Part shown: piece by piece, positions 13,028 to 33,499 of the stretch | Numbering within the stretch: position 1 is the first letter of the stretch | Layout of the letters: the number at the start of each line of letters is the position of its first letter | NCBI GenBank assembly: GCA_910579075.1 | Contig: CAJTSV010000001.1 | Coordinates: 11,304 to 75,303 of the forward strand | DNA length: 64,000 bases | Source of the DNA: an uncultured Eubacterium sp. | GTDB lineage: Bacteria; Bacillota; Clostridia; Lachnospirales; Lachnospiraceae | Reading direction: 5' to 3' | Notes under the pieces: generated by a model | Databases searched by the model: none | Seen by the model: the letters and a program-made list of their open reading frames with translations, nothing else | What the model was told of the DNA's origin: nothing | Made by a program: the position numbers and the translations under genes

Positions 13028-14344
13028 TCAGAGTCCTTTCACTGCTTCTAATACATCCTTTATCTGTACCGCTATTTCGGCATCTCCAATCAAAAGACGT
13101 TCAAACTGGTTTTCCGCCTTTTTACTCTGCATATCATAATAAGCTTTATCTTCTACATATCGTTTTATAATTGCTGGATATTGTGAAATATCATCACACT
13201 GAAAATCTTCCCCTGCACAGGAGACTATATCTCCTGTTTTTAAGCACACTACTGGTTTCCCCTCATTCATTGCAGCGACACCAGCCCCTCCATTCCCAAG
13301 TCCTGGTGTCGCTGCAAGCAAATCTATCAATGCGACTGCTTCTGCAAATTCTTCCTGCCTGCCTAAAAAGCGTAAACGCTCTTTACACTTTACATGTTCA
13401 GCTACCTTTTTCTCAAATACTTCAACAGTTCTTCCAATAAAAATCAGCCAAATATCTTTTACGGTATGTAAATGCACAATCTGCTTTAATACATCCAAAA
13501 ATGATTCTGTACAATCACTTTGAAGCCGGTTACCTATAATACCAATACAAAATGCATTTTCTGGAATATCAAAGCAGTCTCTTTTTAATTTTCCTTTAGA
13601 CTTTTGATAAGATTTAAGCCCGATATTAATGTCCCGGATTATAACATGATGTTCTAATAAAAATTGTTTATCCTCTTTATAAAGTTCTGATGCCCGTTTA
13701 AAATAATTTACCACCATATCAGCGGGAATCCCTGGATACCCTTCACTAAACTGAGTATACAGCATAGGCGTAAATTGTTTCATTGCACCTGCAAACGCTG
13801 GCATGCCGCCAAAACACCAGACACAGTACGGCTTTTTCTGATATAAATAATTCATTAACTGTTTCATTTCCTGAATATTTTCCTGATTCAGCATTATCTG
13901 ATATCCACGATATGTAACTTCTTTTTTTTGAAGTGTAAATTCTCCTGTCAGCCTTTCATCATAATCCATCTCATAACATTGAAATCCCATGCTCATGCAC
14001 TTGGTCATATCTGATGTTTTAATCTCCAAAATTAAAAATACCTCTTTGTTAAGATATTTTCTAATTATTTTGCAGATTTCCAGTATAATCCGGCTGGGTG
14101 CATGTCTTTCAGATAATAACTGCGTTGCAGCTACAACAATAAAATCCGAATTCCTTTCACATACAGGAATCCTTTTATATTCGATTTTCAGCATCTTCTG
14201 CATGGTTTGTATAAAATATTCAGCGTGATTCCAATTCTCTGTAATTGCTATTTTTTTCCCATTCAAAAAGCAAACACTTGAGTACTGATTTCTTAATAAC
14301 AGACACTGAAAGAAATCCTGTTTACTGCCCAGTGCTTCACACAA
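13028..14344 (-). CDS. C-terminal half (GT-B domain) of a split FlmG-like TPR-glycosyltransferase
   Basis: Collinear with aa 475-912 of 15861..18599 (IGIIGNRLQSDCTESFLDVL..LLAATPGLGNGGAGVAAMNEGKPVVCL). The ORF-track start is a TTG. The frame is open upstream as far as the poly-G tract. Confidence 0.6.
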   Translation of the reverse strand: MCEALGSKQDFFQCLLLRNQYSSVCFLNGKKIAITENWNHAEYFIQTMQKMLKIEYKRIPVCERNSDFIVVAATQLLSERHAPSRIILEICKIIRKYLNKEVFLILEIKTSDMTKCMSMGFQCYEMDYDERLTGEFTLQKKEVTYRGYQIMLNQENIQEMKQLMNYLYQKKPYCVWCFGGMPAFAGAMKQFTPMLYTQFSEGYPGIPADMVVNYFKRASELYKEDKQFLLEHHVIIRDINIGLKSYQKSKGKLKRDCFDIPENAFCIGIIGNRLQSDCTESFLDVLKQIVHLHTVKDIWLIFIGRTVEVFEKKVAEHVKCKERLRFLGRQEEFAEAVALIDLLAATPGLGNGGAGVAAMNEGKPVVCLKTGDIVSCAGEDFQCDDISQYPAIIKRYVEDKAYYDMQSKKAENQFERLLIGDAEIAVQIKDVLEAVKGL

Positions 14345-14493
14345 TAATCCGTAAACATGTGCCAGTTCATCCTCTTTTCTATTCTTCTTGTATGCCGTTT
14401 CTATTTTTGCATATTCTTTTAAAATGTGTACATATCGATAATCTAAAAATGCATTATTCTGTTCTGTATTTCTCAGATTATCTATACACGGTT

Positions 14494-15771
14494 CTACCCC
14501 CCCCGCTTCCAGAAAGGCAGTTTCATTACAGCATAATCAGAATACATGCACATTACCATTGCTATACAAATATGCAGATGCCCTGCCAAGGATAAATTCC
14601 CCTTTATTTCCTTTATCTCTTGAAAATCACAAATACTGCGATACAAATTCATATTATAGGTAATACCCGTCAGGTAATTAATCTTTGCTACCGCAGAAAC
14701 TGCTTCATATCCTTTCTCATATATCCTGTTAGATAATATAACAGCATCTTCCCCATATCCCGATTCTAAAAATACACCGCATGTTAAATGCGATTTTATA
14801 AAATTTAAATACTCGCCCAATTGTTCCCACAGCATAATATCACAGCCATTTATGAGTATGGCAAAATTCCCCCATGCAGACTCTAAAAGTTTAAATATGC
14901 CTTGTTCACAGCTTTGTTCTTTCTCCAGATTGCAGACACGTATTCTGGAATCTTTGATTTGTTTATATTCTTCTGTTTTACGGCAAAGAATGACAAATTC
15001 TATCTCACTGTCATATGGGCACTGCAATAACTGAATTACATTCTGTATAGCAGTATTTTTATCAGATAAGTCAATAATACAAACTGATAAAAATATATTA
15101 TTATGTTCAGGCATTAATTGCGTTATCCTTTTTTGATGAAAAACATTTATCATATTCCAATACTTATTTTTATTTTCAGTTACCATCTGCTTTGGAAGAT
15201 AGAATTCATTATATTCTTCAAAATATATTTTCATATATCTATCATCTGGGAAAACAATTATATTTTCAAGATATAACTCACTAAAACGAGGCAGTTTGAA
15301 AAAAGAAGCAAACTGGGGTTCCAGCATTTCATTTAATAACAGATATACTGTATTCCAGCTTGTTTCTTTTAAATCTGGTATAATCTGCCTGATATCCCAA
15401 ATATCTGTATATAAAATGCTATCAAATTCAACATTTTCTCCCTGAATCGGATTTTTTTCGAGAAGGAATACGCCTTCAAATTCTTTTGTTTTTGAATTAA
15501 ATACAAAAAACTGTTCTTCACTGACAGGTATAAAGTCTATCGCACATGCCTCATAAGCAAGCCGGGTAAATCCAAGATTATTATGTTCATAATTTCGCTT
15601 AAATTCTTCCTCATTTGGCATTATAAAGCAATCGTACAAAATATTTAAAATCTTTTCTTTCTCGTATTCCAGCTCATATGCCTGAATAAAAGCATGAACA
15701 GCTTGTTCATATTGATTCAGTTCAAAAAAGAGAATCCCTTGATTAAAATATAATTCTCCAGCATTTCCCAT
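14494..15771 (-). CDS. N-terminal half (TPR-like + degenerate GT-A-like region) of the same split gene
   Basis: Collinear with aa 1-425 of 15861..18599 (MGNAGELYFNQGILFFELNQYEQAV against MNKGESFFKQGIQFFESEQYEQAV). Terminates immediately after the G8 tract. Confidence 0.6.
   Translation of the reverse strand: MGNAGELYFNQGILFFELNQYEQAVHAFIQAYELEYEKEKILNILYDCFIMPNEEEFKRNYEHNNLGFTRLAYEACAIDFIPVSEEQFFVFNSKTKEFEGVFLLEKNPIQGENVEFDSILYTDIWDIRQIIPDLKETSWNTVYLLLNEMLEPQFASFFKLPRFSELYLENIIVFPDDRYMKIYFEEYNEFYLPKQMVTENKNKYWNMINVFHQKRITQLMPEHNNIFLSVCIIDLSDKNTAIQNVIQLLQCPYDSEIEFVILCRKTEEYKQIKDSRIRVCNLEKEQSCEQGIFKLLESAWGNFAILINGCDIMLWEQLGEYLNFIKSHLTCGVFLESGYGEDAVILSNRIYEKGYEAVSAVAKINYLTGITYNMNLYRSICDFQEIKEIKGNLSLAGHLHICIAMVMCMYSDYAVMKLPFWKRGG
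14497..14504 (-). repeat. poly-C(8) on plus strand / poly-G(8) on the coding strand
   Basis: Read directly: gttcta-cccccccc-gcttcc. Confidence 0.95.
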
Positions 15772-15860: not shown

Positions 15861-18599
15861 TTATGTTTCTTTCACCATTTCCAGCACATTCTTTATCTGT
15901 ACAGCTATTTCTTCATCTTGAACCAAGAGACTTTCAAACTGCTTTTGTACCTTTTTACTCTGCATTTCATAATAGTCTTCATCTTCTATGTATCGTCTTA
16001 TCATTTCTGGATATTGAGTAATATCGCCACACTGGAAATCATCGCCTGTACAGGCAGCTATATCACCTGAATTTAAACAAACCACTGGTTTGCCTTCATT
16101 CATTGCTGTCACACCAGCGCCTCCATTTCCAAGTCCCGGTGTTGCTGCAAGCAAATCTATCAATGCAACAGCTTCTGCAAATTCCTTCTGATATCCTATA
16201 AACCGAAGCTGTTCACTTTCTGTAACATATTCTGCCACTTTTTTCTCAAATGCTTCGCTTGTTTCTCCAATAAAAATCAGGCAGATTTTTTTTGCTGTAT
16301 GTATTTGTACAATTTTCTTCAGCACATTCAAAAATGCATCTGTGCAGTCACTGTGAAGTCGATTTCCCGCAATCCCTATGCAAAATGCATCCTCTGGAAT
16401 ATCAAAGCTGCTCCGTTTCAGCTTGCCTGATGATTTTTGATAGGAATTCATCCCTATATTAATATCCTGAATAATAACATTATGTTCTAGTAAAAAATTT
16501 TTTTCTTCTGGATATGACGCAGCAGCCCGTTCAAAATAATTAACCACAATATCCGTGACAAATCCAGGATAGCCTTCATTAAATTGGGTATAAACCATAG
16601 TCGTAAACTGTCTCATAGCACCTGCAAAAGCCGGAATACCACCAAAGCACCAGACACAATACGGCTTTTTTTGATACAAATGCTGCATAACCTGCTTCAT
16701 TTCCCTGATATTCTGATGTGCAAGTATTACCTGATATCCATAATAGGTATCTCCATTATATGGATATCCAAAATTTCCTGTCAGCGTTTTTGTATAATTT
16801 ACTTCATGCCCGAAGAACCCTAAATCCCAGCATTTTTCTTCTTCTGTAACTGTAATCTCAATCATCAGAAATACTTGTTTCTGAAGGTATTTTTCAATCA
16901 GCCTGCAAATTTCCAATATAATTCTTGTCGGTGCATGTCTGACCGACAGCAGCTGCGCTGCCGCTATCACTATAAAATCAGCATTCCGTTCCTGTAATGG
17001 TATTTTAGAATAATTCATATTCAGTGTTTCCTGCATAGCCTGCATAAAGTATGCAGAATGATTCCAAACATCCTCTATATGCGGCCTTATGCCATTCATA
17101 AAACAACGGCCCATATACTGCTGCTTTAAAAGCAGACACTCAAATAAATCATTCTTTTTCATAACTGCACCAGATAATAAATCATAAATATAATCCAGCT
17201 CATTCTTACCATTTCTTAATTCCATGTTTCTCTTATATACTTCTGGCAAAATATTCCTGCTTCGGAATTCCAAAAATGCCTTTTTCTGTTTCTCTAAAAT
17301 TTCATCCTTTCTTTCATGCAAAGATTCCTTTGATTTTGTTTTCCACAATAACATCCCCGTAGTCGCACAGCTGGAAAATCTGCATAACAATGTTGCTATG
17401 CAAATATGTGTATATTCTTCCAGTAACCGATTTTCCTTCACCTTATCCATAAAATCCAGGCTGCTGATGCTGCGAAATAATTTCATGTTATATGTAATTC
17501 CCGTTAAATATTGCTGCTCTGACAAAGCACGCAAGGCATCATATCCCTTTGCACTTTCTTTTTCAGGCAGCCTGGAAAATATTTCTCCATCTCCTGATTC
17601 CAGAAATACACCGCTTACTGCATGCGCTTTAATAAAACTTAAATATTTTTCCAGTTCATCAACAATCATACTGTCGGTTTCGTACATGAAAACCGCATAC
17701 TGGCCCTGCACCAGTTCCAGCGCTTTCCATATTGCTGATGCATATCCATCTCCATTTTCCAACTCGCAAAAGCGGACTCTGGCATCCTTTATCTGTTCAT
17801 ATTCTTTCGGTCTGTTCTGCAATATAAGAATCTCAATTTCACTATCATAAGGACATTTTAATAACTGCAAGGCATTCTGCACAGCCACTGAATGATTCCT
17901 GAAGCTTAAAATACAAATAGACAAAAAGATATTTTTCCGGTCTGTATCAATATTTTTTACGCGGTTCTCATGCAATCTGTGAATCTGGTTCAGATACTTT
18001 GCCGTTTGATTTGTAACGAGCTGTTTCGGCAGGTAAAATTCCTCATATTCTTCAAAAAAAATCTGCATGTATTTTTCGTTCGGGAATACAACCACATTTT
18101 CCAGATACAATTCATGAAAATGTGGCAGCTTAAAAAAAGAAGCAAATTTCGCCTCCTGCCCGTTTAATAATATATAAACAGTCCCCCAGTAATTTTCATG
18201 CAAATCTGGCAGTATCTGACGAATATCCCATATATCTGTATAAAGAATACTATCAAACCGTACATTTGTACCGCGGACAGGCTTATCTTCTAATTCAATC
18301 AAGCCTTCAAATTTCGCTTCTTCCCGATTAAAAATATAAAAACAAACATCACTCACAGGTATAAAATCCAGCATGCATTCTTCATAAGCAATCCTGGTAT
18401 GCGCAGCGCTGTTGTATTTATAATTATTTCGAAATTCCTGTTCATTCGGGATAATAAAGCAATTATATAAAATATCCAGTATATGCTCTTTCTCATAACT
18501 ATGTTCATATGCCTGAACCAAACATGCTACAGCCTGTTCATATTGTTCTGATTCAAAAAACTGTATTCCTTGCTTAAAAAAACTCTCCCCTTTATTCAT
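15861..18599 (-). CDS. 912-aa multidomain protein: TPR-like N-terminus, degenerate GT-A-like middle, GT-B (GT41-like) C-terminus; candidate FlmG-type flagellin glycosyltransferase
   Basis: Intact version of the 14494..15771 + 13028..14344 pair. The start overlaps the pseC stop by 8 nt. Confidence 0.6.
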   Translation of the reverse strand: MNKGESFFKQGIQFFESEQYEQAVACLVQAYEHSYEKEHILDILYNCFIIPNEQEFRNNYKYNSAAHTRIAYEECMLDFIPVSDVCFYIFNREEAKFEGLIELEDKPVRGTNVRFDSILYTDIWDIRQILPDLHENYWGTVYILLNGQEAKFASFFKLPHFHELYLENVVVFPNEKYMQIFFEEYEEFYLPKQLVTNQTAKYLNQIHRLHENRVKNIDTDRKNIFLSICILSFRNHSVAVQNALQLLKCPYDSEIEILILQNRPKEYEQIKDARVRFCELENGDGYASAIWKALELVQGQYAVFMYETDSMIVDELEKYLSFIKAHAVSGVFLESGDGEIFSRLPEKESAKGYDALRALSEQQYLTGITYNMKLFRSISSLDFMDKVKENRLLEEYTHICIATLLCRFSSCATTGMLLWKTKSKESLHERKDEILEKQKKAFLEFRSRNILPEVYKRNMELRNGKNELDYIYDLLSGAVMKKNDLFECLLLKQQYMGRCFMNGIRPHIEDVWNHSAYFMQAMQETLNMNYSKIPLQERNADFIVIAAAQLLSVRHAPTRIILEICRLIEKYLQKQVFLMIEITVTEEEKCWDLGFFGHEVNYTKTLTGNFGYPYNGDTYYGYQVILAHQNIREMKQVMQHLYQKKPYCVWCFGGIPAFAGAMRQFTTMVYTQFNEGYPGFVTDIVVNYFERAAASYPEEKNFLLEHNVIIQDINIGMNSYQKSSGKLKRSSFDIPEDAFCIGIAGNRLHSDCTDAFLNVLKKIVQIHTAKKICLIFIGETSEAFEKKVAEYVTESEQLRFIGYQKEFAEAVALIDLLAATPGLGNGGAGVTAMNEGKPVVCLNSGDIAACTGDDFQCGDITQYPEMIRRYIEDEDYYEMQSKKVQKQFESLLVQDEEIAVQIKNVLEMVKET

Positions 18600-19713
18600 A
18601 TATGATATCCTTTAAATGCTCTATAACATAATCCTGCTGATTATCTGTCAATTCTGCAAATAATGGCAGACTGATTATATGTTCGTATAGCTTTTCTGCT
18701 TCCTGACAGCAGATATGCTGATATCCATGTTCCTGATAATAAGGGTGCTGATAAACTGGTATATAATTTACATTTACCTGAATTCCGGCATTTCTCAATC
18801 TATCAAAGACTTTCTTTCTGTTCTGAACCTGTATCACATATAAATGCCAGCTGTTATTGCATCCTTTTTCCTGATATGGGCATGTAATGGCTTCGATATC
18901 GCGAAACGCATCCTCATATCGTTTTACCAGTTCCTTTCTTCTTATAATAAACTTGTCCAGTTTCCGCATCTGAGACACACCAAGCGCACACTGTATATCT
19001 GTAATCCGGTAATTATAACCTAAATCCACCTGCTGATAATACCAGCCGCCTTCATTTTTCGTCATCAGGCCTTCTTCTCGCGTAATCCCATGGCTGCGGA
19101 ATAATTTCAGCTTTTCGTACAGCTTCTTATCATTTGTAGTTATCATTCCGCCTTCTCCCGTTGTAATATGCTTTACCGGATGGAAACTGAATGTCGTCAT
19201 ATCTGAAATTGTCCCTATTTTTCTGCCTTTGTAATCAGCCCCCAGCGCATGTGCCGCATCCTCAATCACTGTAAGATGATGCTCTTTTGCAATTGCATGA
19301 ATCTCATCCATATCACATGGCTGGCCTGTATAATGCACTGCTATAATTGCTTTTGTTTTTTTTGTTATTTTTTTCCGGATATCTGACGGGTCAATATTAT
19401 AAGTATCTGGCCTGATATCAGCAAAAACAGGCATACCCCCGCAATACAGCACACAATTTGCAGATGCTGCAAAAGTCATCGGTGTTGTAATAACCTCATC
19501 TCCGTCCTTAATACCCGCTGCAAAACAGGCAGCATGTAATGCTGCCGTCCCATTCGCAATTGCAACTGCATATTTTGCACCAGTGTACTCACACACAGCT
19601 TTTTCAAATTCACAAACTGCCGGCCCTGTTGTAAGGTAATCACTTTGCAGTATTTCTGCTACTGCCTGTATATCATCCTCATCTATCCATTGCTTTCCAT
19701 ATGGTATAATCAT
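18592..19713 (-). CDS. pseC: UDP-4-amino-4,6-dideoxy-N-acetyl-beta-L-altrosamine transaminase
   Basis: N-terminal signature IPYGKQWIDEDDIQAV..LQSDYLTTGP, then FSFHPVKHITTGEGG. Sits among pse genes. Confidence 0.85.
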   Translation of the reverse strand: MIIPYGKQWIDEDDIQAVAEILQSDYLTTGPAVCEFEKAVCEYTGAKYAVAIANGTAALHAACFAAGIKDGDEVITTPMTFAASANCVLYCGGMPVFADIRPDTYNIDPSDIRKKITKKTKAIIAVHYTGQPCDMDEIHAIAKEHHLTVIEDAAHALGADYKGRKIGTISDMTTFSFHPVKHITTGEGGMITTNDKKLYEKLKLFRSHGITREEGLMTKNEGGWYYQQVDLGYNYRITDIQCALGVSQMRKLDKFIIRRKELVKRYEDAFRDIEAITCPYQEKGCNNSWHLYVIQVQNRKKVFDRLRNAGIQVNVNYIPVYQHPYYQEHGYQHICCQEAEKLYEHIISLPLFAELTDNQQDYVIEHLKDIIYE

Positions 19714-19800
19714 TCTCTGATACCTGCCTCTATGTTATATTCCTTTCTTTCACAATCATTGCATTTCTTGCCTTAGTGTCTTTGCATTTCATTTAACAAC

Positions 19801-20829
19801 TCAGTTATGTTTACTGTTACAATTCATCCCTATTAACTCTTTCGCAATTCTCGCCGCCCCGCCACCATCTACCAGTTCCTGCATTCCCCTGATGCGCTGT
19901 TCCCTTAGTTCATACTGCTGCTCATACTGTTCAAGCACCAATGCAGCTTTCTCAGATACATCCTCAAAACGTATATCTCCAAGATAATCCATTAATCCAT
20001 CCTGTGCAAACTGACGTACATTATCCAGCTGATTATCTGCAAAAGAATATGTTATCGTCGGTGTCCCACAGGCGCAAAGCTCATATAGTGTTGTTCCACC
20101 AGCGGATATTGCTGCATCTGCCCTCAGCATATAATCTTTTATGTCATTGACAGATTTATGAATATGAATATTTCTATTCTGGCCATATTCCCGACTCAGC
20201 TGTTCATAATCAGTGCAATATGTCCCGCAAATCACATCAACTGCCTTATATTTGCTGCAATTAAGCCTTTTCAGAAATTGTGGCAATATATGAAATTTAT
20301 CGCTGCCACCCGACATTAACAGAATATTTTCCAGCCGGCTTTTAACCTCATTTCTTTTCAGTCCATGAAAATCTTTTCTAAGGGGAACATACTGTGTTCC
20401 AAGCAAAAGTTTTGTTTCTTTATAGTTCTGACTATATTTAAATTTCTGCCAATAATTCGCATAACAAATCAGAATATGAACTGGATACACAAACGTATTT
20501 CTATCATCTATATATGCAGTTTTTGTCCATTTTGCCAAAGCCTGAAGGTAACTTTTTGTTACCATATAACTGTCTATCAGCAAGGCTTTAATTCTCTTTT
20601 CCTGAATTACCTGATACAATGCATCCAATTCAGAATCCATATCATCCCATTTTGTATGTAGCACGACAGCCTGATATCCTCTCTCCTGAATCAATCCAAG
20701 CGCCTCGCTGTCTGCCAGAATAAACGTAACATCCTCGCCCAGACTGGCCGCTGCATCCGCAATCGAAAGACATCTCATCATGTGTCCGGTAGCAATCGAC
20801 GGATTCATATCCGTTCTTATATATAACAT
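19801..20829 (-). CDS. pseG: UDP-2,4-diacetamido-2,4,6-trideoxy-beta-L-altropyranose hydrolase
   Basis: YIRTDMNPSIATGHMMRCLSIADA N-terminus and GT28/MurG-like C-terminus (SAGGTTLYELCACGTPTI). Neighbours are pseC and pseH. Confidence 0.75.
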   Translation of the reverse strand: MLYIRTDMNPSIATGHMMRCLSIADAAASLGEDVTFILADSEALGLIQERGYQAVVLHTKWDDMDSELDALYQVIQEKRIKALLIDSYMVTKSYLQALAKWTKTAYIDDRNTFVYPVHILICYANYWQKFKYSQNYKETKLLLGTQYVPLRKDFHGLKRNEVKSRLENILLMSGGSDKFHILPQFLKRLNCSKYKAVDVICGTYCTDYEQLSREYGQNRNIHIHKSVNDIKDYMLRADAAISAGGTTLYELCACGTPTITYSFADNQLDNVRQFAQDGLMDYLGDIRFEDVSEKAALVLEQYEQQYELREQRIRGMQELVDGGGAARIAKELIGMNCNSKHN

Positions 20830-20853
20830 GTTCTACCCTCAAAAAGTCTCTAT

Positions 20854-21543
20854 TTAAGAAAAAATCTCCATTCTATAATATTGCTCTTTATATCCCATTT
20901 CAATGTTTTTATATCTTCTAAGAAAATCTCCTATATTATCATTCCAGCTAAATTTTATTTTTTCTTTCAGCATATCCAGTTCTTTTTTGACATGACAGCT
21001 TCCTTTTCCTGCCTGCTCTGTTAATGAATAACAGCCATCTTTCATTTCATCCCATTTTTCCTTCATTAATTCCACAATTTCTTTATTCAATTTGTCATAA
21101 GTGGTCTGTAATGTTTCCTTCTCAATGTCAAAAAAACACTGTTTTTGATACAATATTTTTCCAGTATCGAGTCCTTCATTTACCTGATGTATGGTTACTC
21201 CTTTTGGCGTGTCATCAATAAAACTCCATATATTTGGATTGGAACCGCGATTCCATGGCAGAAATGAAATGTGGAGGTTCCAGATTCTCCCATTCATATA
21301 TTCTATCAGTTCTCTGCTAATCAGGTATTTATAATTATAGCTGATAATAAAATCCGGCTTCAGATTCTGCAACTGGCACATCAGCAAGCGTTCACTATAT
21401 ATATGAACTGTTTCACGCTGTTTCAGCCAATGATACAAATCCAGAGAGTTACTGTTATTCGTTAAAAATAATACCCCCCCCCGAATTTGTTTCCAGTGTT
21501 TTAGATATAGCGCCACAGGCATCTGTTTCAATTTCATATACAT
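20854..21543 (-). CDS. formyltransferase-family domain protein; its own start is doubtful and it may be the C-terminal half of a GNAT-formyltransferase fusion
   Basis: Formyl_trans_N-like pattern: VLFLTNNSNSLDLYHWL, FIISYNYKYLI, NLHISFLPWNRG, HQVNEGLDTG. All in-frame ATGs lie inside the upstream GNAT gene and lack an RBS. Confidence 0.6.
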   Translation of the reverse strand: MYMKLKQMPVALYLKHWKQIRGGVLFLTNNSNSLDLYHWLKQRETVHIYSERLLMCQLQNLKPDFIISYNYKYLISRELIEYMNGRIWNLHISFLPWNRGSNPNIWSFIDDTPKGVTIHQVNEGLDTGKILYQKQCFFDIEKETLQTTYDKLNKEIVELMKEKWDEMKDGCYSLTEQAGKGSCHVKKELDMLKEKIKFSWNDNIGDFLRRYKNIEMGYKEQYYRMEIFS

Positions 21544-21952
21544 TGCATTTGTACGTATATCCTGTATCTAAAAACACTTTTTGGGAAGCGATATTATCCG
21601 GTTTCACTTTTGCAATCAGTTTCTTTACTCCTGGAAAATCCTTCTGTACCTGTACTTGAAGAAGCCCAACCATTTCTTTGGCATACCCCATGCACCTTTT
21701 TTCAACACAGATACTGTAACTAATCTCAGCTGTATCTCCACTGACAGTAATTCGTATCTGTCCAACTGGTTCATCTTCCATATAAATATACTGTTTCGCA
21801 TCCTTGCGCACCAGCATATTGTCAAACCACTTTATGTGCTCCTCATATGTTATCTCCGCAGAGGAAAATGCATTTTTCCTGACAGTACTTTCATTTGCCC
21901 AATGAAATAATAAATCCGCGTCTTCCTGTACGGCATCTCTCAAATAACCCAT
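21455..21952 (-). CDS. pseH: GNAT N-acetyltransferase, PseH-like
   Basis: GNAT fold (DLLFHWANESTVRKNAF, CVEKRCMGYAKEMV). Located between the Pse-associated methylase and pseG. Ends 6 codons after a G9 tract. Confidence 0.6.
   Translation of the reverse strand: MGYLRDAVQEDADLLFHWANESTVRKNAFSSAEITYEEHIKWFDNMLVRKDAKQYIYMEDEPVGQIRITVSGDTAEISYSICVEKRCMGYAKEMVGLLQVQVQKDFPGVKKLIAKVKPDNIASQKVFLDTGYTYKCNVYEIETDACGAISKTLETNSGGGIIFNE
21474..21482 (-). repeat. poly-C(9) on plus strand / poly-G(9) on the coding strand
   Basis: Read directly: aata-ccccccccc-gaattt. Confidence 0.95.
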
Positions 21953-22028
21953 AACGTAATCTCCAGTTTCTATTTCATCCTGTCCAGTCTTTCCGAATCA
22001 GCGGCATGCCCTTGCTGCTCTCACTGGC

Positions 22029-22658
22029 TTATCTTTTTTCAAGCAGGAACCAGGTAGAATCGTCCTGTGGGAAATGATAATCCCTGTGATAATTAAATTT
22101 ATAATCAACAAGTGCTGTATCTGGGTATTTATCCATAAATTCACCCGCAAAATCGCGCTTAAAAAGCCTGTCCGAATTACCGCGGTATTGTACCGTAACC
22201 GGAGTCGGGTTATAATATTCTGCAATACAGATATACCGTTTGGAAGATTCATATAATTTACGATAAACCTCCTGCAGTTCATCCGGATTTATATGAATTA
22301 ACACCCCTTTTATCAGTACAAAATCAAACTGCTTTTCTGGTTCATATTCTAATATAGACTGTTCATATACCTGTATCTCATGGTTAAAAAATGCATCATT
22401 CTTTAAAATCTCAGCTGCTTTATGGTTAATCTCAATCGCAGAACATGCAATTTGTGGAACCAATGTTTTAATAGCTTTTAAATTCATTCCAATATTAGAA
22501 CCAAATTCTATGACTGAATCTATTTTATTCATTCTCTGAATAATTTCTGAAAAAACACCAATATTACCTGCCAGCAGCTGTGTACTGTCGTTTCTTTCAA
22601 TATATGCATCTCCAAATTCGCCACTCCAAAATTCTTCCTGTTCTGTTTTATATGCCAT
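22029..22658 (-). CDS. pseudaminic acid biosynthesis-associated methylase
   Basis: The N-terminus (EEFWSGEFGDAYIERN) and SAM motif (VIEFGSNIGMNL) fit that family as I remember it. Adjacent to pseB. Confidence 0.65.
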   Translation of the reverse strand: MAYKTEQEEFWSGEFGDAYIERNDSTQLLAGNIGVFSEIIQRMNKIDSVIEFGSNIGMNLKAIKTLVPQIACSAIEINHKAAEILKNDAFFNHEIQVYEQSILEYEPEKQFDFVLIKGVLIHINPDELQEVYRKLYESSKRYICIAEYYNPTPVTVQYRGNSDRLFKRDFAGEFMDKYPDTALVDYKFNYHRDYHFPQDDSTWFLLEKR

Positions 22659-22790
22659 TTTTCATTCTCCTTTATAACCTGTCCATATTGAATTATATTC
22701 TGCTTGTTTTAACTTTTTATATTTGAATAGTTCCTTTTCGTAATTGCCTGCATTTCACTTCACAACGTATACAGGTTAATTTGTCCATTT

Positions 22791-23786
22791 TCAATGGTTC
22801 AAATCCATATTGGCAAGCAGTCCCTGAAGCTGTTCTACACTCAGCCATTCTGTATTTGTTCCTGAACTATATTCAAAACCATCCTCTACTTTTTTTCCGC
22901 CCGGAATAATCCGGTCTTCTCCCCACCAGTTATAATGCGGATATACAATATAATGCTTCTCATATTCATAAGTCATAGCAGAATCTTCCCGCGTAACCAT
23001 TACCTCGTGCAGCTTTTCACCTTCACGGATTCCCACCTCCGGCATCTCGCATCCTGGCTGAATCGCCTGGGCCAAATCCGTAATTTTAAAAGAAGGTATT
23101 TTGGATATAAACGTTTCCCCGCCCCGTGCTTCTTCCAAAGCTTTGATAACAAGCCGGACTCCTTCTGCCAGGCTAATCCAGAATCTTGTCATACGGTAAT
23201 CTGTAATTGGCAGTTTATCCCCGCCATTTTTTACGATGTTCTGAAAAAATGGGATGACAGACCCACGGCTCCCTGCTACGTTTCCATACCGGACAATAGA
23301 GAACCGTACATCTTTGGTACCGGAATAAGCATTTGCTGCTACAAATAATTTGTCGGATACAAGCTTCGTGCCGCCATAAAGATTAATCGGATTCACGGCC
23401 TTATCCGTAGAAAGTGCTACTACGCGCTTTACCCCGCAATCCAGTGCTGCATCTGCAATATTCATTGCTCCATTAATATTTGTTTTAACCGCTTCCATTG
23501 GATTATATTCACATGCCGGCACCTGCTTTAATGCTGCTGCATGTATTACATAATCTACACCGTCAAATGCACGATACAAACGTTCCTTATCCCTCACATC
23601 TCCGATAAAAAAACGTAGTTTATCTTTATACTGATTAAATTTTCCCGCCATATGAAACTGCTTAAATTCATCTCTGGAATAGATAATAATTTTTCGAGGG
23701 TTGTAATTTGACAACGCATATTCTGTAAATGCGTTTCCAAATGAACCTGTCCCACCAGTTACTAATATTGTTTTTCCGTTTAACAT
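22791..23786 (-). CDS. pseB: UDP-N-acetylglucosamine 4,6-dehydratase (inverting)
   Basis: ILVTGGTGSFGNAF, YSRDEFKQ, HAAALKQVP, STDKAVNPINLYGGTKL. 331 aa. Confidence 0.9.
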   Translation of the reverse strand: MLNGKTILVTGGTGSFGNAFTEYALSNYNPRKIIIYSRDEFKQFHMAGKFNQYKDKLRFFIGDVRDKERLYRAFDGVDYVIHAAALKQVPACEYNPMEAVKTNINGAMNIADAALDCGVKRVVALSTDKAVNPINLYGGTKLVSDKLFVAANAYSGTKDVRFSIVRYGNVAGSRGSVIPFFQNIVKNGGDKLPITDYRMTRFWISLAEGVRLVIKALEEARGGETFISKIPSFKITDLAQAIQPGCEMPEVGIREGEKLHEVMVTREDSAMTYEYEKHYIVYPHYNWWGEDRIIPGGKKVEDGFEYSSGTNTEWLSVEQLQGLLANMDLNH

Positions 23787-23804
23787 CTTAATGCCTCCTG
23801 TTAA

Positions 23805-25661
23805 TTAATGAATTTCAAGCAGTGTTTCTTCTGCAAATTCTTTGAGTATCTGTGCACACTGCTGCAGCAGTTTTGCATACTTCATGCCCTGTTTTGATAT
23901 GGCTTTTCCTTCTTCTTCAATCGAATCCAGTGAAAACAGGCTTTCACTTTTGACAATAAGTTCACCAACCGTCATTGTCGAAGACACAATCTGGTACATA
24001 CTGTTTCTTTCGCACGTTTTTGTCATTTTCTTAACTTTTTTTAACAGTTTTTCATAATCTGCCCGGTTCATGTTTCTGGCCCTGCACATTAAATTTATCT
24101 TGTGGTAAGCGGTATAGAGCTTTTTCGCATCACGGTAAATATATGCGAACTGCTCTGGAATCGAATGCAGATATTCTACAACTTTATCACGTTCATCATT
24201 TATAAATTCTGGTTTTACATTTTGAATACATTCCTCAAAATTAATTTCTTCCTTTGGACACGTTGCTTCAATTGCATCACGCAGAGGCATTACCTCTGTT
24301 CCTTCAATATATGCTCCCCCAGCCGTTGCATTAATCACCCTGACATTTGGCCGGTGTTCTTTCATCCCTTTAATATGTGCTTCAAACCACTCTAAATACA
24401 TTTTCAAATTGCCAAGTGTTGGCAGTTCTTCTTCGTAATTTCCTTTTACCCGTATCATTCCATCTGTATTTTCTTCTGGCATTACATCTTTAAACGTGCC
24501 GTCTGCGTGAGAACGGTTATCTGTATATGCCAAATCCTGTCCTACCAGAATAATCGTATCAAATCCCATTTTATAGAGCAGTGAAAGACAAGTACATGCA
24601 ACAGACCCGCCGCTTGACAGAGATGGCAGTATCCTTCCAATAGCTGTATATGCATAATAAGCTAAGACATGACCGTCTGAATAAAAAAATTTCTTTCCCC
24701 TCTGTTCTTGCAGAATATCTGAATTAGCAGTAGCAGACGCAATAATTGGAATGTCTTTCGCCTCATCTGCCTGAACCAAATCCAGCGGTTTCATAGGATC
24801 AATTGTACAGAATGCATCAGGATGGATTCCCGCTCGAAGCAGTGGCTTCATCGCTGTATCGACTGCAAGGATAAAAGCCCTGTTTTTTGCTGCCTTCAGC
24901 TCCTGTATATTTTTATTTAAAGAAGGACCAGCTGCCACCAAAATTGCGGGCCTGTCATGAGGTACTGTCTGCATCAGGCATTTTACATGATATCCTTCAC
25001 ATAAATATTTCATATTTGCCATCTGGTTACGCGCCATATAAGTCGAAAAATTAACGCCTGTCATCTGATTTGAGACTACAAATTCTTCTCTTTTCTGAAT
25101 CAGCTTTGTTTTTTCAAACACTTTATCATAAAACAGTTCCTGGTAATTCGGATGAATTACCACTTTTAAGAACATCCTGTTTTCAAAAGACAATATTCTA
25201 CGGCATGCTGTGTCAAATGCAGCCTCATTCAACCCTTCCACTACAAAAATAATCGGACGATTTTCTATTTCACTGGATAAATCTACTTCGTTCAGCATTT
25301 GAAGAAAAATGGAAAGAGATGGCTCATATACAACAACAGCAACCGTCTTGTCCGATTCTTTTATCAGACGTTTTAAGTATATCCCGCTGCCTGTTCCAAG
25401 CAAAAAAACAGGAGCATATTTATGAATTTCTCCGAGATGCTCCATCCAGATATCTGCCGGTTCCCTGGCATTTCTTTTCCCATTCAGATACAAAAGACGT
25501 TCTCCCTGTTTCACCCGGAAAATTAATTCCCCATCCTGAGAAACCTCTTTTATAATTTCTAATTCATCTAATTTATAATCACCATTTCTCAGCTGTTCTG
25601 CAAACGCTGGATACCATTTTTCCATTGCCATTAAATTGCCATCCAATATTTCTTTACTCAT
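23805..25661 (-). CDS. maf: motility accessory factor (Maf, DUF115/MptE-like) putative flagellin pseudaminyl transferase
   Basis: Core AILVAAGPSLNKNIQELKAAKNRAFILAVDTAMKPLLRAGIHPDAFCTIDP. I prefer the start at 25661 (GGGGTGGA RBS; the ATG overlaps the upstream stop as ATGAGTAA). The ORF track starts at 25682. Confidence 0.8.
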   Translation of the reverse strand: MSKEILDGNLMAMEKWYPAFAEQLRNGDYKLDELEIIKEVSQDGELIFRVKQGERLLYLNGKRNAREPADIWMEHLGEIHKYAPVFLLGTGSGIYLKRLIKESDKTVAVVVYEPSLSIFLQMLNEVDLSSEIENRPIIFVVEGLNEAAFDTACRRILSFENRMFLKVVIHPNYQELFYDKVFEKTKLIQKREEFVVSNQMTGVNFSTYMARNQMANMKYLCEGYHVKCLMQTVPHDRPAILVAAGPSLNKNIQELKAAKNRAFILAVDTAMKPLLRAGIHPDAFCTIDPMKPLDLVQADEAKDIPIIASATANSDILQEQRGKKFFYSDGHVLAYYAYTAIGRILPSLSSGGSVACTCLSLLYKMGFDTIILVGQDLAYTDNRSHADGTFKDVMPEENTDGMIRVKGNYEEELPTLGNLKMYLEWFEAHIKGMKEHRPNVRVINATAGGAYIEGTEVMPLRDAIEATCPKEEINFEECIQNVKPEFINDERDKVVEYLHSIPEQFAYIYRDAKKLYTAYHKINLMCRARNMNRADYEKLLKKVKKMTKTCERNSMYQIVSSTMTVGELIVKSESLFSLDSIEEEGKAISKQGMKYAKLLQQCAQILKEFAEETLLEIH

Positions 25662-25992
25662 TCTTTGCATCCACCCCGTCATTTTCTTCTGTGATGAATA
25701 TATCCAACAATTCCCTCAAACCAAAGTCCAGCGTATCTATCATAAGCACCAAGTCTCTCTGACGCACTGCTTCCATGTAATCATTTAGAACATGCAGTAT
25801 ATAGTCCTGCAAACCTCTGCTTTCTTCCGTCTGCTCGCCCTCACTGATTCCCTGTATCATGGCAGAAGCAAACTGCTGAATCTGTCCTGCCAGTTTTTCT
25901 CCCTCCGTAACTGCGTCAAATTTATGCAGAAAATAATAATTAATGCAAATTATTCCGATTTTATCAGCCAGATTTTTTGCCAATACTTCCAT
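25654..25992 (-). CDS. hypothetical small acidic protein (112 aa), translationally coupled to maf
   Basis: First ORF after the fliC terminator. Its stop overlaps the maf start. Confidence 0.5.
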   Translation of the reverse strand: MEVLAKNLADKIGIICINYYFLHKFDAVTEGEKLAGQIQQFASAMIQGISEGEQTEESRGLQDYILHVLNDYMEAVRQRDLVLMIDTLDFGLRELLDIFITEENDGVDAKNE

Positions 25993-26023
25993 ATATTACA
26001 GCTCCCGCTTTTCATCTTTTATT

Positions 26024-26057
26024 CAAAAAAACAGAGGTACGATACCTCGTACCTCTG
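26024..26057 (-). terminator. rho-independent terminator of the flagellin gene
   Basis: Perfect 11-bp stem cagaggtacga/tcgtacctctg with a 4-nt loop. On the minus strand it is followed by TTTTTTT. Confidence 0.8.
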
Positions 26058-26096
26058 CAATTTTGTATTCCAATTCTATTTAACAGTATAATCAGA

Positions 26097-27299
26097 TTAC
26101 CCTAACAGAGATAATACGCCCTGTGTACTCTGATTAGCCTGTGCAAGCATTGACTGTCCAGCCTGTGCAAGAATATTATTCTTGCTGTACTCAACCATTT
26201 CAGAAGCCATATCTGTATCACGAATACGGGATTCTGCTGACTGTGTATTCTCAGCTACGTTATCAAGGTTTGCAATTGTATGCTCTAATCTGTTCTGGAT
26301 AGCACCAAGTGCTGACCTCTGGGAAGACACCTTGTTAATAGCATCCTGAATAGCATCAATAGAAGCGTTTGCAACCTGATAGTTATCTACGCCAACCATA
26401 CCTTTTGCAGTATATCCGCTCAACTGCACACCAGATGTAACCTTTGTCTCAAGGAAATCTGCAAAATTTGTTTTCAGGTCTTCTTCTGCCTTATCCATAG
26501 CAATGCTGAAATCTGCTGCTGCAACACTTGCTGATGTTCCAAATCTCTGGTTTGTCAGTTTGCCAATAAAATATACACTGCCTGTATCTGTATCAAACTG
26601 TGCAGCGTAAGTAGAAGCACGGTAAATAGAAGTGCCAAAGCGAAGGCTGATGCTTCCTAAAACTGCAGATATATTAGCACCTTTAGACAAACCTGTACTA
26701 TATATATGACTGGTACCTTTATACCTAACAACAGTAGGACCATTGCCATGCTGAATATCGCCTGCATACTCTTTATTAATTGTCTTTAATCCCAATGTCT
26801 GAGCATTCATGTTGCCGATACTGATACGAATCTTCTGATTTGAGTTTGCGCCAACCTGAAGGTTCTTGTTTGTAAATGTACCATCCAGCAAGTTCTGCTT
26901 ATTGAACTGTGTTGTCTGAGAAATTCTGTCTAATTCAGCTGTTAAAGCAGATAACTCCTGATTAATAGCATCGCGGTCGATTTCTTCGTTTGTATCGTTA
27001 GCACCCTGAACTGCCAGTTCATTCATACGCTGTAAGATAGAATGAGCTTCATTTAAAGCACCTTCAGCTGTCTGGATAAGAGATACACCATCCTGTGCAT
27101 TGGAAGAAGCTTTGTTTAAGCCGCGAACCTGGCTTCTCATTTTTTCAGAAATCTTTAAGCCTGCTGCATCATCGCCCGCACGGTTGATTCTGTAACCAGA
27201 AGATAACTTTTCAGAAGATTTAGCCTGTGAACCAGTTGTAACGCCTAACTGACGGTTAGCGTTCATAGCTGTGAGATTATGCTGTACTACCATTGCCAT
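26097..27299 (-). CDS. fliC: flagellin
   Basis: MAMVVQHNLTAMNANRQLG..SSEKLSSGYRINRAGDDAAGL..SLIQTAEGAL N-terminus. C-terminus is ..NILAQAGQSMLAQANQSTQGVLSLLG. The central region is S/T-rich. Confidence 0.95.
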   Translation of the reverse strand: MAMVVQHNLTAMNANRQLGVTTGSQAKSSEKLSSGYRINRAGDDAAGLKISEKMRSQVRGLNKASSNAQDGVSLIQTAEGALNEAHSILQRMNELAVQGANDTNEEIDRDAINQELSALTAELDRISQTTQFNKQNLLDGTFTNKNLQVGANSNQKIRISIGNMNAQTLGLKTINKEYAGDIQHGNGPTVVRYKGTSHIYSTGLSKGANISAVLGSISLRFGTSIYRASTYAAQFDTDTGSVYFIGKLTNQRFGTSASVAAADFSIAMDKAEEDLKTNFADFLETKVTSGVQLSGYTAKGMVGVDNYQVANASIDAIQDAINKVSSQRSALGAIQNRLEHTIANLDNVAENTQSAESRIRDTDMASEMVEYSKNNILAQAGQSMLAQANQSTQGVLSLLG

Positions 27300-27307
27300 A
27301 ATAATTT

Positions 27308-27339
27308 TCCTCCTTGAATTTACTGCATCGTCCCTGATG
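27308..27339 (-). promoter_or_regulatory. fliC leader: hairpin presenting AGGGA in its loop, plus a GGAGG Shine-Dalgarno (putative CsrA binding sites)
   Basis: Minus-strand text gcatcAGGGAcgatgc (27324..27339), about 10 nt upstream of caAGGAGGa. fliW and csrA are encoded in the same window. Confidence 0.5.
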
Positions 27340-27435
27340 CAAATTTGTTATTTTGATTTCGATAGAACTCTGGCAAGCCGTACGCACCTGTCTGAAATCC
27401 TATCATTTTAAGTAATGTTGTTTTACTTGTATTAT

Positions 27436-27462
27436 ATATCGGACGCATGGGCAGATACTTTA
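27436..27462 (-). promoter_or_regulatory. sigma-28 (SigD/FliA)-type promoter of fliC
   Basis: Minus strand reads TAAA-16 nt-CCGATAT, about 135 nt upstream of the ATG. Confidence 0.7.
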
Positions 27463-27514
27463 TAGCCATCTTAAAATTTTTTAAAGGTTTTATTTAGTCT
27501 CCTGCCAGCTTCTG

Positions 27515-28175
27515 TTATTTATCACAGCGCCGCAAAACAGGAACCAGATTTTTATATGTAATTTCCAGCCTTTCCCATCTTCCATCAATAACTACAGAAT
27601 CTGGCAGTAATAAATTCTGCGCCTCAGAAAATGGCGTCATATCTGCCACCATTTGAAATAATTTAATCAAATCTGCTCCCAGTCCATGTTCTGCATGCTT
27701 AAATATGTTTCCATCCACATCATCTGGCCACACAGTTATCAGCGCTGCCCTGTTTCCTAATGTGTTGAAAAACTGTTTCTTTTCACCATTTCCTGCATAA
27801 CGCCCATATCATTGCAATCCAGCCAGCTTTCTCCAGTATCAATATCTGCCTGAATCTCATCTTTACCACTCAGCATCTGTCCATCAACAATTTGTTCCAG
27901 TTTTTCTTCAAAATTCTGCATATACTGGATGCCAAAATAATCGCACTGCAAGACGGCCATATTATATTCATCTGCAAACTGAGTCCTCATTTTATGATAC
28001 ACTCTCGAATCAATACAGTCTCCATACCCGGGAATCAGACACAAAATACCTGTCTTGGCATTGATTCCCATCTCTGGAATGCTAAACACAACACGAAGCC
28101 TACGCTGCTTATTACCCCCCCCGGAACATATATGCTGTCCTGAGCAGAAATAAACACTTCCATTTCACTTGCCAT
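27515..28175 (-). pseudogene. decayed alpha/beta-hydrolase-like gene, possibly DUF2920-like, with a 5' poly-G tract and a second frameshift
   Basis: RBS AGGAGA + ATG at 28175 gives MASEMEVFISAQDSIYVPGG. After the G8 tract the frame switches to GNKQRRLRVVFSIPEMGINAKTGILCLIPGYGD (ORF 27757..28089). A further shift near 27760 leads into ORF 27515..27733 (..DVDGNIFKHAEHGLGADLIKLF..). Total length is only about 215 codons. Confidence 0.55.
28115..28122 (-). repeat. poly-C(8) on plus strand / poly-G(8) on the coding strand
   Basis: Read directly: atta-cccccccc-ggaaca. Confidence 0.95.
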
Positions 28176-28292
28176 AATCTGTCTCCTGAATTTCACTTAC
28201 TGTAAAATGCACCTGCTTCACTAAATTATTTTAATTGTTTTATATAATACATTTTTTCAGCTATCAGGCCGTACATGCTGCCAGCTGCTGCA

Positions 28293-29339: not shown

Positions 29340-29379
29340 ATTGTTTCCCTCTCTTATTTTGTAATGCTGCCTGCACTTT

Positions 29380-30084
29380 CTAACTGCCTTCTTCTTTATG
29401 CTTCTTTAAATACTCTGCTTTCAATTCAGCCATTTTCCAGTCTTCTTCCGTATCAATGTCCTGAACTTCCTGCTCCGGACATATAATCGGATAAATCTTT
29501 CCATGAATCTGTCTGTATTTCATAAAGCTGGAAACCTCATAGAAATAAAACTGCCCCGCATCATGGTACATTTTTTCCAAATCCTGCGACCTTGCATTTT
29601 TGAATTCCTCCCATTTATAATGAAAAGAACCATCATCAGAAAAAACATAAGACCTCTGAGGCGGGTAAGAAAACGGAACAACCGGAAGCACCTGCACATA
29701 ATCATTCGACGAAATCAGCTGCATGCACTGTTTTAATTTATCTGCTGTAATAAACGGATTGGCCGGATACAGGCAGGCCATATAATCAAATGTCCTTCCC
29801 ATCTTCTGGTATTCTTCGAGCACCTCCAGTAAAACATCTGTCGTCGTCGAATAATCATCGGAAGCTGCCGCGCTGCGCATAAACGGTACCGACGCGCCTG
29901 CCCTTCTGGCAATTTGCGCGATTTCCTCATCGTCCGTAGAAACCATGACTTCATCAAAGATTTCCGCTTTTAATGCCGCTTCAATGGAATATAGCATAAT
30001 CGGTTTTCCAAGAAACTCTTTTATATTCTTTCTGGGAATCCGTTTGCTTCCTCCACGTGCAGTAATGATTGCAATTGTATTCAT
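29380..30084 (-). CDS. pseF: pseudaminic acid cytidylyltransferase
   Basis: IAIITARGGSKRIPRKNIKEFLGKPI (CMP-sugar synthetase motif). 234 aa. Confidence 0.8.
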   Translation of the reverse strand: MNTIAIITARGGSKRIPRKNIKEFLGKPIMLYSIEAALKAEIFDEVMVSTDDEEIAQIARRAGASVPFMRSAAASDDYSTTTDVLLEVLEEYQKMGRTFDYMACLYPANPFITADKLKQCMQLISSNDYVQVLPVVPFSYPPQRSYVFSDDGSFHYKWEEFKNARSQDLEKMYHDAGQFYFYEVSSFMKYRQIHGKIYPIICPEQEVQDIDTEEDWKMAELKAEYLKKHKEEGS

Positions 30085-33455: not shown

Positions 33456-33499
33456 AGAGAATTTCAAACATATACAAATGTATATGTATATCACTATAA

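Follow-up and report, generated by a model that had tools for sequence, protein, structure and literature searches.

A poly-G tract in the linker of a GNAT-formyltransferase fusion as a probable phase-variable switch in a flagellin-glycosylation island of an uncultured Eubacterium

The window analyzed here is the whole 64,000-nt stretch of contig CAJTSV010000001.1 (positions 11,304 to 75,303; assembly GCA_910579075.1) from an uncultured Eubacterium sp. of the Lachnospiraceae. Its main subject is a run of nine C residues on the plus strand at 21474..21482, i.e., G9 on the coding (minus) strand, which lies between the reading frame of a GNAT acetyltransferase and that of a putative sugar N-formyltransferase (FT) in a predicted pseudaminic acid (Pse) flagellin-glycosylation locus. 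We consider it likely that this tract, named T1, truly switches the FT domain by phase variation, and the full explanation, in which slippage at T1 acts in this way in the Pse glycosylation of flagellin, is likely as well. The three features on which the argument turns are as follows.

21474..21482, minus strand: poly-G tract T1 (G9), in the linker that joins GNAT to FT
21455..21952, minus strand: GNAT (Acetyltransf_3) open reading frame (ORF) as assembled, 165 amino acids (aa), modelled as a complete GNAT fold with a disordered tail
20854..21473, minus strand: coding sequence of the PseJ-like FT domain, assigned from Pfam, PDB, and Foldseek matches, with dN/dS (the ratio of non-synonymous to synonymous substitution rates) as further evidence

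The first-pass annotation of this DNA had noted that G9 parts the GNAT from the FT frame, and its observation of T1 is correct. The GNAT ORF ends in ...TLETNSGGGIIFNE-stop (i.e., ...NSGGGIIFNE-stop), and the FT frame (ORF 20854..21543, minus strand) reads ...HWKQIRGGVLFLTNN... across the same bases. In the numbering of the fused protein, T1 spans the last base of Ser157, two glycine codons, and the first base of Val160, so that the linker codons are TCG GGG GGG GTA (Ser-Gly-Gly-Val). When one G is lost or two are gained, 20854..21952 becomes a single uninterrupted ORF, of 365 or 366 aa, respectively; the 365-aa G8 product, also foreseen in the first-pass annotation, was reproduced by deleting one G in silico. 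The predicted products by tract length are a 365/366-aa fusion for G8/G11 and a GNAT-only protein of 162-165 aa for G7, G9, and G10. As in a contingency gene, a mutable homopolymer lies inside a reading frame and its repeat number switches both frame and product.

The FT reading frame is without a usable start of its own. Its in-frame candidates at 21543, 21537, 21531, 21522, and 21516 do lack a Shine-Dalgarno sequence, as had been suggested: the best anti-Shine-Dalgarno pairing is -4.1 kcal/mol at a poor spacing and the others are -1.6 or weaker, against -5.8 to -11.2 kcal/mol for the real starts in the locus. The exception among the latter is the maf start at 25682 (-1.6 kcal/mol), and most gene callers choose a later start for that gene. 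In an AlphaFold model of the fusion (predicted local distance difference test, pLDDT, 93.8; predicted template modelling score, pTM, 0.89), the GNAT fold ends near residue 145, a lower-confidence linker occupies residues 146-159, and the first FT strand, beta-1, is predicted at residues 160-163 (VLFL), right behind the tract-encoded Gly-Gly. The model thus agrees with the earlier proposal that the FT fold begins at VLFLTNN directly after the tract. Modelled alone, the 165-aa product is a complete GNAT (pLDDT 91) with its core at residues 1-140 and a disordered tail.

T1 varies in length among public contigs of the same strain. For every tract length, the predicted product was looked up by exact sequence and the contigs carrying it were counted, which gave 20 for G7, 67 for G8 (83 when 16 with point variants are added), 162 for G9, 18 for G10, and one for G11; the ON fraction is therefore 0.30, with an intact fusion on about 30% of contigs. 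A second allele, diverged by ~1.5%, was found split on 48 contigs and fused on 10. The tract is thus not invariant; invariance would have spoken against the first-pass annotation.

The remainder of the sequence is far more stable than the tract. In an alignment to the window of 14 near-identical, same-strain contigs from ENA, JGI, and Logan (224.6 kb), all 20 indels fell at T1 or at one of two further poly-G tracts, T2 (14497..14504) and T3 (28115..28122), and only 13 positions carried single-nucleotide polymorphisms. No indel affected the eight A/T homopolymers of 8-9 nt that this region contains. Over 16.8 kb, an NCBI metagenome-assembled genome (MAG), Eubacterium sp. HFH32 (GCA_022797015.1), matches the window except at the three tracts: its T1/T2/T3 lengths are G8/G9/G9, leaving three genes intact, whereas those of the window are G9/G8/G8, leaving three broken. 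The (T1,T2,T3) combinations seen include 9,8,8; 9,8,9; 9,9,8; 9,9,9; 8,9,8; 8,9,9; and 8,8,-, and the three tracts assort independently. Neighboring genes without a tract are intact nearly everywhere, the 912-aa glycosyltransferase on 249 contigs and maf on 263. Repeat length is, as in contingency genes, polymorphic among otherwise identical genomes. Because indels are confined to the G tracts, the tracts assort independently, and the neighbors are intact, an assembly artefact is very unlikely.

By composition alone, T1 is less striking. The window has four G8 matches, compared with 1.18 expected from dinucleotide shuffles, and eight of 100 shuffles reach four. The spectrum of G/C runs gives a stronger signal: runs of 5, 6, 7, 8, and 9 occur 28, 2, 0, 2, and 1 times, and geometric extrapolation of this spectrum predicts 0.09 runs of at least 8 where three were seen (P ~1e-4). 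Each of these three runs reads as G on the coding strand, and each lies inside the glycosylation island. GGG makes up 20% of glycine codons, and GGG-GGG encodes only two of 43 Gly-Gly pairs, both within tracts. Since the shuffle test is marginal, the case rests not on composition but on the position of the tract, its polymorphism between samples, and its conservation across species.

A search with the hypothetical G8 protein found that most of the top 120 matches are proteins of 348-370 aa that contain both PF13302 and PF00551. The homologous fusions for which the first-pass annotation had proposed a search are overwhelmingly single proteins with a conserved GGVLFLTNN junction, and separate FT genes with a start of their own and no homopolymer, which would have argued against its proposal, were not the arrangement in the homologous loci. 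On these comparisons, the GNAT-FT fusion is the real gene and the normal, ancestral architecture. The window strain conforms to it in the G8 (67 + 16 contigs) and G11 (one contig) states and departs from it as assembled, with G9. Other arrangements exist: FT-only forms occur, of which P0075 and P0078 keep the GNAT start (MGYLR...) without the middle of the GNAT; a ~360-aa N-terminal domain precedes the FT in another architecture; and stand-alone FTs of ~200 aa are present in other genomes.

The FT half matches PF00551 at 73 bits, and its Asn225, His227, and Asp262, the FT catalytic triad, are invariant in 45 aligned sequences. Its best PDB sequence match is PseJ of Anoxybacillus kamchatkensis (6CI2, E = 1.4e-35). 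Foldseek placed it at a template modelling (TM) score of 0.87 and 36% identity (structural alignment) to the PseJ entry soaked with UDP-4-amino-4,6-dideoxy-L-AltNAc; the formylation (F) domain of LgrA ranked next, with other sugar N-formyltransferases far behind, and Rv3404c, ArnA, and Fmt also placed below PseJ. With a Formyl_trans_N fold, an Asn-His-Asp triad, a closer relationship to PseJ than to other families, and a position within a Pse cluster, the FT half can be filed as a predicted PseJ-type sugar N-formyltransferase.

The GNAT half is less easily named. Pfam assigns it to PF13302/PF00583, in the Acetyltransf_3 (RimJ/RimL-like) family, and the alignment of its family shows almost no variation in the acetyl-CoA loop, R86-x-x-G89-x-A91. 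Its sole NCBIfam match is PseH (TIGR03585) at 41.2 bits (E = 1.7e-10), below the curated cut-off of 93.1. A PDB sequence search with this half gave no match, and a fold search with the GNAT-only model found generic GNATs such as AAC(6')-Ib and SpeG, PseH being absent from the top 50. Membership in PseH is therefore not claimed. The first-pass description of the protein as PseH-like holds for its position, by which it is the best PseH candidate, but not for its score, which at 41 bits falls short of the required 93. The island's other GNAT, at 8038..8484, is RimI-like, scores 21.9 bits against PseH, and sits with the WbqC/DegT genes of another sugar pathway. By position and context, the GNAT at 21455..21952 is thus probably the better of the two PseH candidates in the island and can be called PseH-like in that sense only.

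Between the two alleles, the FT domain differs by 11 synonymous and four non-synonymous changes (dN/dS 0.075), and the GNAT by four synonymous and seven non-synonymous changes (dN/dS 0.44, from small numbers). On these counts the FT domain is under purifying selection. That selection maintains a domain found out of frame in most sampled genomes is in keeping with an in-frame state that is of use to the cell from time to time.

A few sequences of the T1 region deserve separate mention. In one contig (L001, Logan SRR27310663) with an in-frame G8, a G-to-A change at 21899 converts Trp18 of the GNAT (TGG) to TGA, and the gene caller begins the protein at Met45 after this stop; this is a single case. 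The 272-aa product annotated in MAG GCA_022797015.1 was considered as an N-terminal GNAT disruption in a fused background, but its upstream frame is intact and the short call reflects the start chosen in annotation. Cys272 of the fusion (KQCFFD; 21137..21138), a position next to seven consecutive coding-strand Ts (T7) where the family consensus also has Cys, shows recurrent codon substitutions: Val in P0132 (nine contigs), and Gly in P0133 (five contigs) and P0130 (12 contigs).

The loci compared, all encoding relatives of the FT, were 80 from species-representative genomes (L009-L088) and 80 from metagenomes (L095-L174). Among the GTDB species representatives, the relatives of the window's organism were for the most part gut-metagenome Lachnospiraceae, none of them at ~100% identity to it. 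A DNA pattern anchored exactly on the flanks of T1 had no matches in metagenome contigs, and protein alignment was used for that scan instead. GNAT and FT are adjacent in 22 of these loci, and 17 of the 22 (Lachnospiraceae, Selenomonadaceae) have a run of G7-G14 exactly at the GNAT/FT junction. The first-pass annotation was silent on this conservation, as it was on the two sister tracts. The tract-bearers comprise Lachnospiraceae, Dorea, and Eubacterium MAGs, Selenomonadaceae MAGs, and two isolates, Schaedlerella arabinosiphila DSM 106076 (G8) and Selenomonas sp. AE3005 (G14). The two domains are out of frame in 13 of the 22 loci, every one of which has a tract, whereas the two are in frame in each of the five loci whose run is G6 or shorter (Fisher p = 0.005). 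The frame offset is +1 in some species and +2 in others. Placement of a tract at the junction is thus conserved across at least two bacterial classes.

Long G runs are a wider property of such islands. In 1.33 Mb of related islands, G/C runs of 4-7 number 4136, 973, 136, and 21, and those of 8, 9, and 10 number 7, 17, and 5, giving a second mode at G9; all 32 runs of at least 8 are on the sense strand as G. The genes that hold those long runs that were checked are of the methyltransferase, TylF, aldo-keto reductase, B12/radical-SAM, KAS-III, PIG-L, and epimerase-like types, and the genes holding some others resemble, by eye, PseB, PseG, and DegT. When the three tracts of the window are included, 24 of 35 G tracts of at least 8 (69%) are followed by TA, as G(n)TAA or G(n)TAT; after runs of G4-G7, TA does not rank among the six most frequent followers. 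In frame, G(n)-TA usually reads x-Gly-Gly-Val, and one of the out-of-frame readings often meets TAA or TAG at once. The common G(n)-TA design and the preferred length of nine suggest selection for the switch itself or the spread of tract-bearing cassettes.

Two loci of this collection stand out. A Lachnospiraceae MAG (MGBC111446, locus L009) has six G8-G9 tracts in 21 kb of one island, the densest arrangement seen: they lie in three methyltransferase-type genes (one TylF-like), an aldo-keto reductase, a B12-binding radical-SAM-type gene, and at the GNAT-FT junction. In S. arabinosiphila DSM 106076 (L065), the ORF in the best frame spans 715 aa and meets the G8 tract at its residue 512, which suggests that GNAT-FT is joined there to an extra N-terminal region as a three-part fusion.

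The sister tracts in the window, and the larger gene that one of them splits, are these.

14497..14504, minus strand: poly-G tract T2 (G8), out of frame and followed by TAG
13028..15771, minus strand: gene for a 914-aa TPR + GT4-type glycosyltransferase, split by T2; paralogue of the 912-aa gene at 15861..18599
28115..28122, minus strand: poly-G tract T3 (G8), out of frame and followed by TAATAA

At T2, G8 splits the glycosyltransferase into 425 and 438 aa, and G9 joins ORFs 14494..15771 and 13028..14344 into the 914-aa protein. Contigs number 162 for G9 (914 aa), 55 for G8 (425 aa), 17 for G10, four for G11, and three for G7. The genes at 13028..15771 and 15861..18599 are tandem paralogues with ~73% nucleotide identity in their 3' parts, and one of the two has a poly-G tract. 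At T3, G9 restores a 139-aa ORF (27757..28175, minus strand) just upstream of the flagellin gene, and contigs number 238 for G9 (139 aa) and 30 for G8 (46 aa). The 139-aa product has a weak match to DUF2920 (E = 6e-4), which we take to be the family of the Campylobacter poly-G '617 family' genes; compared with the 400-position profile, it may be a remnant.

We propose that T1 is a hypermutable simple-sequence repeat whose length shifts by slipped-strand mispairing at replication. High-frequency reversible slippage is inferred here; both states are seen in two alleles. Cells with G8 or G11 would make the 365/366-aa two-domain enzyme (a PseH-like GNAT with a PseJ-like FT), whereas in G7, G9, or G10 cells translation would stop 3-6 codons past T1, yielding the GNAT domain alone without the FT. 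Such a switch would add or remove one catalytic domain while keeping the other, unlike the ON/OFF switch of a classical contingency gene. It is possible that, when untranslated, the ~600 nt of FT sequence are polar on the downstream pseG and pseC.

In the Pse pathway, the amine placed at C4 by PseC is the only free amine and becomes N7; PseH acetylates it and PseJ formylates it. Because this amine is the only one free and both enzymes use it, GNAT-only cells would be expected to make the standard 7-N-acetyl sugar, Pse5Ac7Ac, and fusion cells would also, or instead, formylate the same 4-amino intermediate to give Pse5Ac7Fo on flagellin. This acetyl/formyl outcome of the switch seems to us about evenly poised between right and wrong. 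Together with T2, T3, and an invertible element upstream of the island (see below), T1 could generate many flagellar glycoforms within one strain.

Several points weigh against a slippage switch of this kind. Switching within a lineage is deduced from differences between samples, and the contig counts lack independence, since the studies behind them overlap. The commonest T1 state is split, and all three tracts peak at G9 whether this is in frame (T2 and T3, ON fractions 0.66 and 0.88) or not (T1, 0.30); because the peak is shared regardless of phase, the length spectrum may reflect a mutational bias or optimum rather than selection on phase. Similarly, the share of tract-bearing species loci that are out of frame (13 of 17) is as for random phase, i.e., two-thirds (P = 0.28), and in the shuffle test T1 is only marginally unusual. 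On the enzymatic side, the GNAT is no certified PseH (41 against 93 bits, with generic fold neighbors), the island holds a second GNAT at 8038..8484, and an acetyltransferase fused to a formyltransferase would have one shared amine to divide between them.

The alternatives account for the data less well. Homopolymers are of course error-prone on several sequencing platforms, and each of the three tracts in the window is one base off its in-frame length, as might be expected if the gene were always an in-frame fusion and G9 a miscall. That reading is, however, very improbable: G9 is the commonest length across ENA, JGI, NCBI, and Logan assemblies from different pipelines (162 contigs), the 20 indels of the 224.6-kb alignment are at the three G tracts with none at A/T runs of 8-9 nt, and the necessary corrections would run in opposite directions, -1 at T1 and +1 at T2 and T3, at tracts that assort independently. 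Out-of-frame junction tracts are, furthermore, present in 13 other loci, including that of the isolate S. arabinosiphila DSM 106076, whose genome was apparently obtained with PacBio and Pilon. It is equally hard to believe that the FT is the dead remnant of a gene decaying after a fixed frameshift. Predominance of the split state is what a pseudogene would show, and the FT-only, GNAT-deleted derivatives P0075 and P0078 indicate erosion in some lineages, but the FT retains its Asn-His-Asp triad, is free of further disrupting mutations in those same-strain contigs that were inspected, has a dN/dS of 0.075 (11 synonymous and four non-synonymous changes), and is part of an intact fusion on about 30% of contigs; many species, moreover, keep the tract at this position, some with the two domains in frame and some with them out of frame.

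Translation offers two further possibilities. Were the FT made as an ordinary second gene of 220-229 aa from an internal start overlapping the 3' end of the GNAT, the 220-, 222-, and 229-aa FT products reported by gene callers would be correct, and the stand-alone FTs of ~200 aa in other genomes would be a precedent. The start candidates are nonetheless weak next to real ones (-4.1 kcal/mol at poor spacing, or less, against -5.8 to -11.2), the additional 20-27 residues are simply the 3' end of the GNAT read in another frame, the FT fold is predicted to begin at the tract, and every homologue whose junction run is G6 or shorter is a fusion; we regard this reading as highly improbable. Recoding, in which G9 would still yield some fusion through +1 ribosomal frameshifting or transcriptional slippage and the tract would set the GNAT to GNAT-FT ratio, is unlikely. 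It would reconcile purifying selection on the FT with a modal state that is out of frame both in the strain and in most species representatives, and long homopolymers can support slippage. The occurrence of both +1 and +2 offsets among species fits poorly with one programmed shift, however; no stimulatory element was identified at T1, transcriptional slippage is best documented for A/T rather than G runs, and polymorphism at the DNA level already accounts for selection on the FT.

Poly-G phase variation of flagellar sugars is textbook knowledge for Campylobacter. The flagellar glycosylation locus of that genus has poly-G contingency genes (Cj1295, the maf family; PMC3068675). PhasomeIt lists poly-G tracts in a C. 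coli 'formyl transferase domain protein (lgrA)' (G8-10) and in the C. fetus formyltransferase-domain gene CFT03427_1556 (G9-10), and also in KAS-III, ATP-grasp, methyltransferase, and radical-SAM genes (PMC6321876). As in Campylobacter, the tracts described here are intragenic poly-G runs of ~7-13, typically G9, with several independent ones per flagellin-glycosylation island, and they hit glycan-tailoring enzymes of the same classes; in Campylobacter, switching by frameshift gives mixed glycoforms. Unlike Campylobacterota, however, the hosts are gut commensals of the Bacillota (Lachnospiraceae, Selenomonadaceae), and whereas whole genes are turned off in Campylobacter, whose FT genes were compared by description only, a tract in the linker would drop a single domain.

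PseJ has been cited as the enzyme that opens a route to Pse5Ac7Fo (PMC11040635). Like PseJ of A. kamchatkensis (PDB 6CI2, 6CI4, 6EDK), the FT described here has an Asn-His-Asp triad and a Pse-cluster context, and the substrate soaked into the PseJ crystal, UDP-4-amino-4,6-dideoxy-L-AltNAc, is common to PseH. PseJ is a stand-alone protein of ~190 aa, whereas this FT lies behind a GNAT and its translation would be tied to the length of a homopolymer. The GNAT shares with PseH (UDP-4-amino-4,6-dideoxy-beta-L-AltNAc N-acetyltransferase) a GNAT fold, the acetyl-CoA loop, and a place among pseB, pseC, and pseG, and is unlike it in scoring 41 bits against a cut-off of 93 and in belonging to the Acetyltransf_3 family.

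In the literature that could be searched, we found no account of simple-sequence repeat phase variation of flagellar glycosylation in Lachnospiraceae, Clostridium, or other gut Clostridia; a 2026 Clostridium study merely cites the Campylobacter precedent. The mechanism itself is known; what appears to be new is the gut Bacillota host, the placement in a domain linker that would toggle one domain, and the conservation of this placement across two classes. This junction placement would be an unusual use of a contingency tract, in that it edits the domain make-up of an enzyme. Whether gut Firmicutes (Lachnospiraceae, Selenomonadaceae) have a Campylobacter-like multi-locus phasome, in which a conserved linker tract swaps acetyl-only for acetyl plus formyl activity, is a wider proposition to which we give even credence.

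Flagellins of Lachnospiraceae are prominent targets of host immunity in the mouse and human gut, and also of flagellotropic phages. If the N-acetyl/N-formyl Pse switch is real and stochastic, then in combination with the two sister tracts and the invertible element it would give one clone many flagellar surfaces, and these flagellins would be antigenically and chemically heterogeneous inside that clone. There are consequences for annotation too: pipelines split or truncate these genes, giving 'formyltransferase' calls of 220-272 aa and 165-aa 'RimJ/RimL' calls, and MAGs fix one arbitrary phase.

The genes of the glycosylation island are all on the minus strand. Those of the Pse core were identified with NCBIfam and Pfam and are listed in coordinate order.

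18592..30084, minus strand: Pse flagellin-glycosylation core
18592..19713, minus strand: pseC, above the NCBIfam cut-off
19801..20829, minus strand: pseG, above the NCBIfam cut-off
22029..22658, minus strand: Pse-associated methylase
22791..23786, minus strand: pseB, above the NCBIfam cut-off
23805..25682, minus strand: maf/PseD-like gene
26097..27299, minus strand: flagellin
28293..29339, minus strand: pseI, above the NCBIfam cut-off
29380..30084, minus strand: pseF

GNAT-FT is thus flanked by pseB and the Pse methylase on one side and by pseG and pseC on the other, with pseI and pseF nearby. The island also holds two glycosyltransferases of ~910 aa and aminotransferase, methyltransferase, WbqC, and ATP-grasp genes, and fliD lies beyond it.

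Upstream of the island is the invertible element, with its neighbors.

32089..33225, minus strand: ATP-grasp gene, the first of the island, with the invertible element directly upstream
33311..33458, no strand assigned: invertible DNA element, with 17-nt inverted repeats at 33311-33327 and 33442-33458 and a 114-nt core
33500..34126: serine recombinase, a 208-aa ORF beside the invertible element

Among 10 public contigs, the core was found in the orientation of the window in five and exactly inverted in five, with no mismatches to either prediction. In the window orientation, the core has a sigmaD/sigma28-like motif, TAAG-N16-ACGATAT, that faces the island and is lost on inversion; it resembles the TAAA-N16-CCGATAT upstream of the flagellin gene. 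At the level of motifs, the core is a candidate invertible promoter of the sigmaD type and as such would be a second, independent layer of phase variation, by a mechanism distinct from that of the poly-G tracts. Site-specific recombinases invert promoters in other bacteria, as do the Mpi-type invertases of Bacteroides and the flagellar switch of Clostridioides difficile; the element here is like these in its inverted repeats, its recombinase neighbor, and the presence of both orientations in contigs, whereas its promoter is a motif match. Assemblies tend to break at this element, 19 of 20 contigs being <5 kb.

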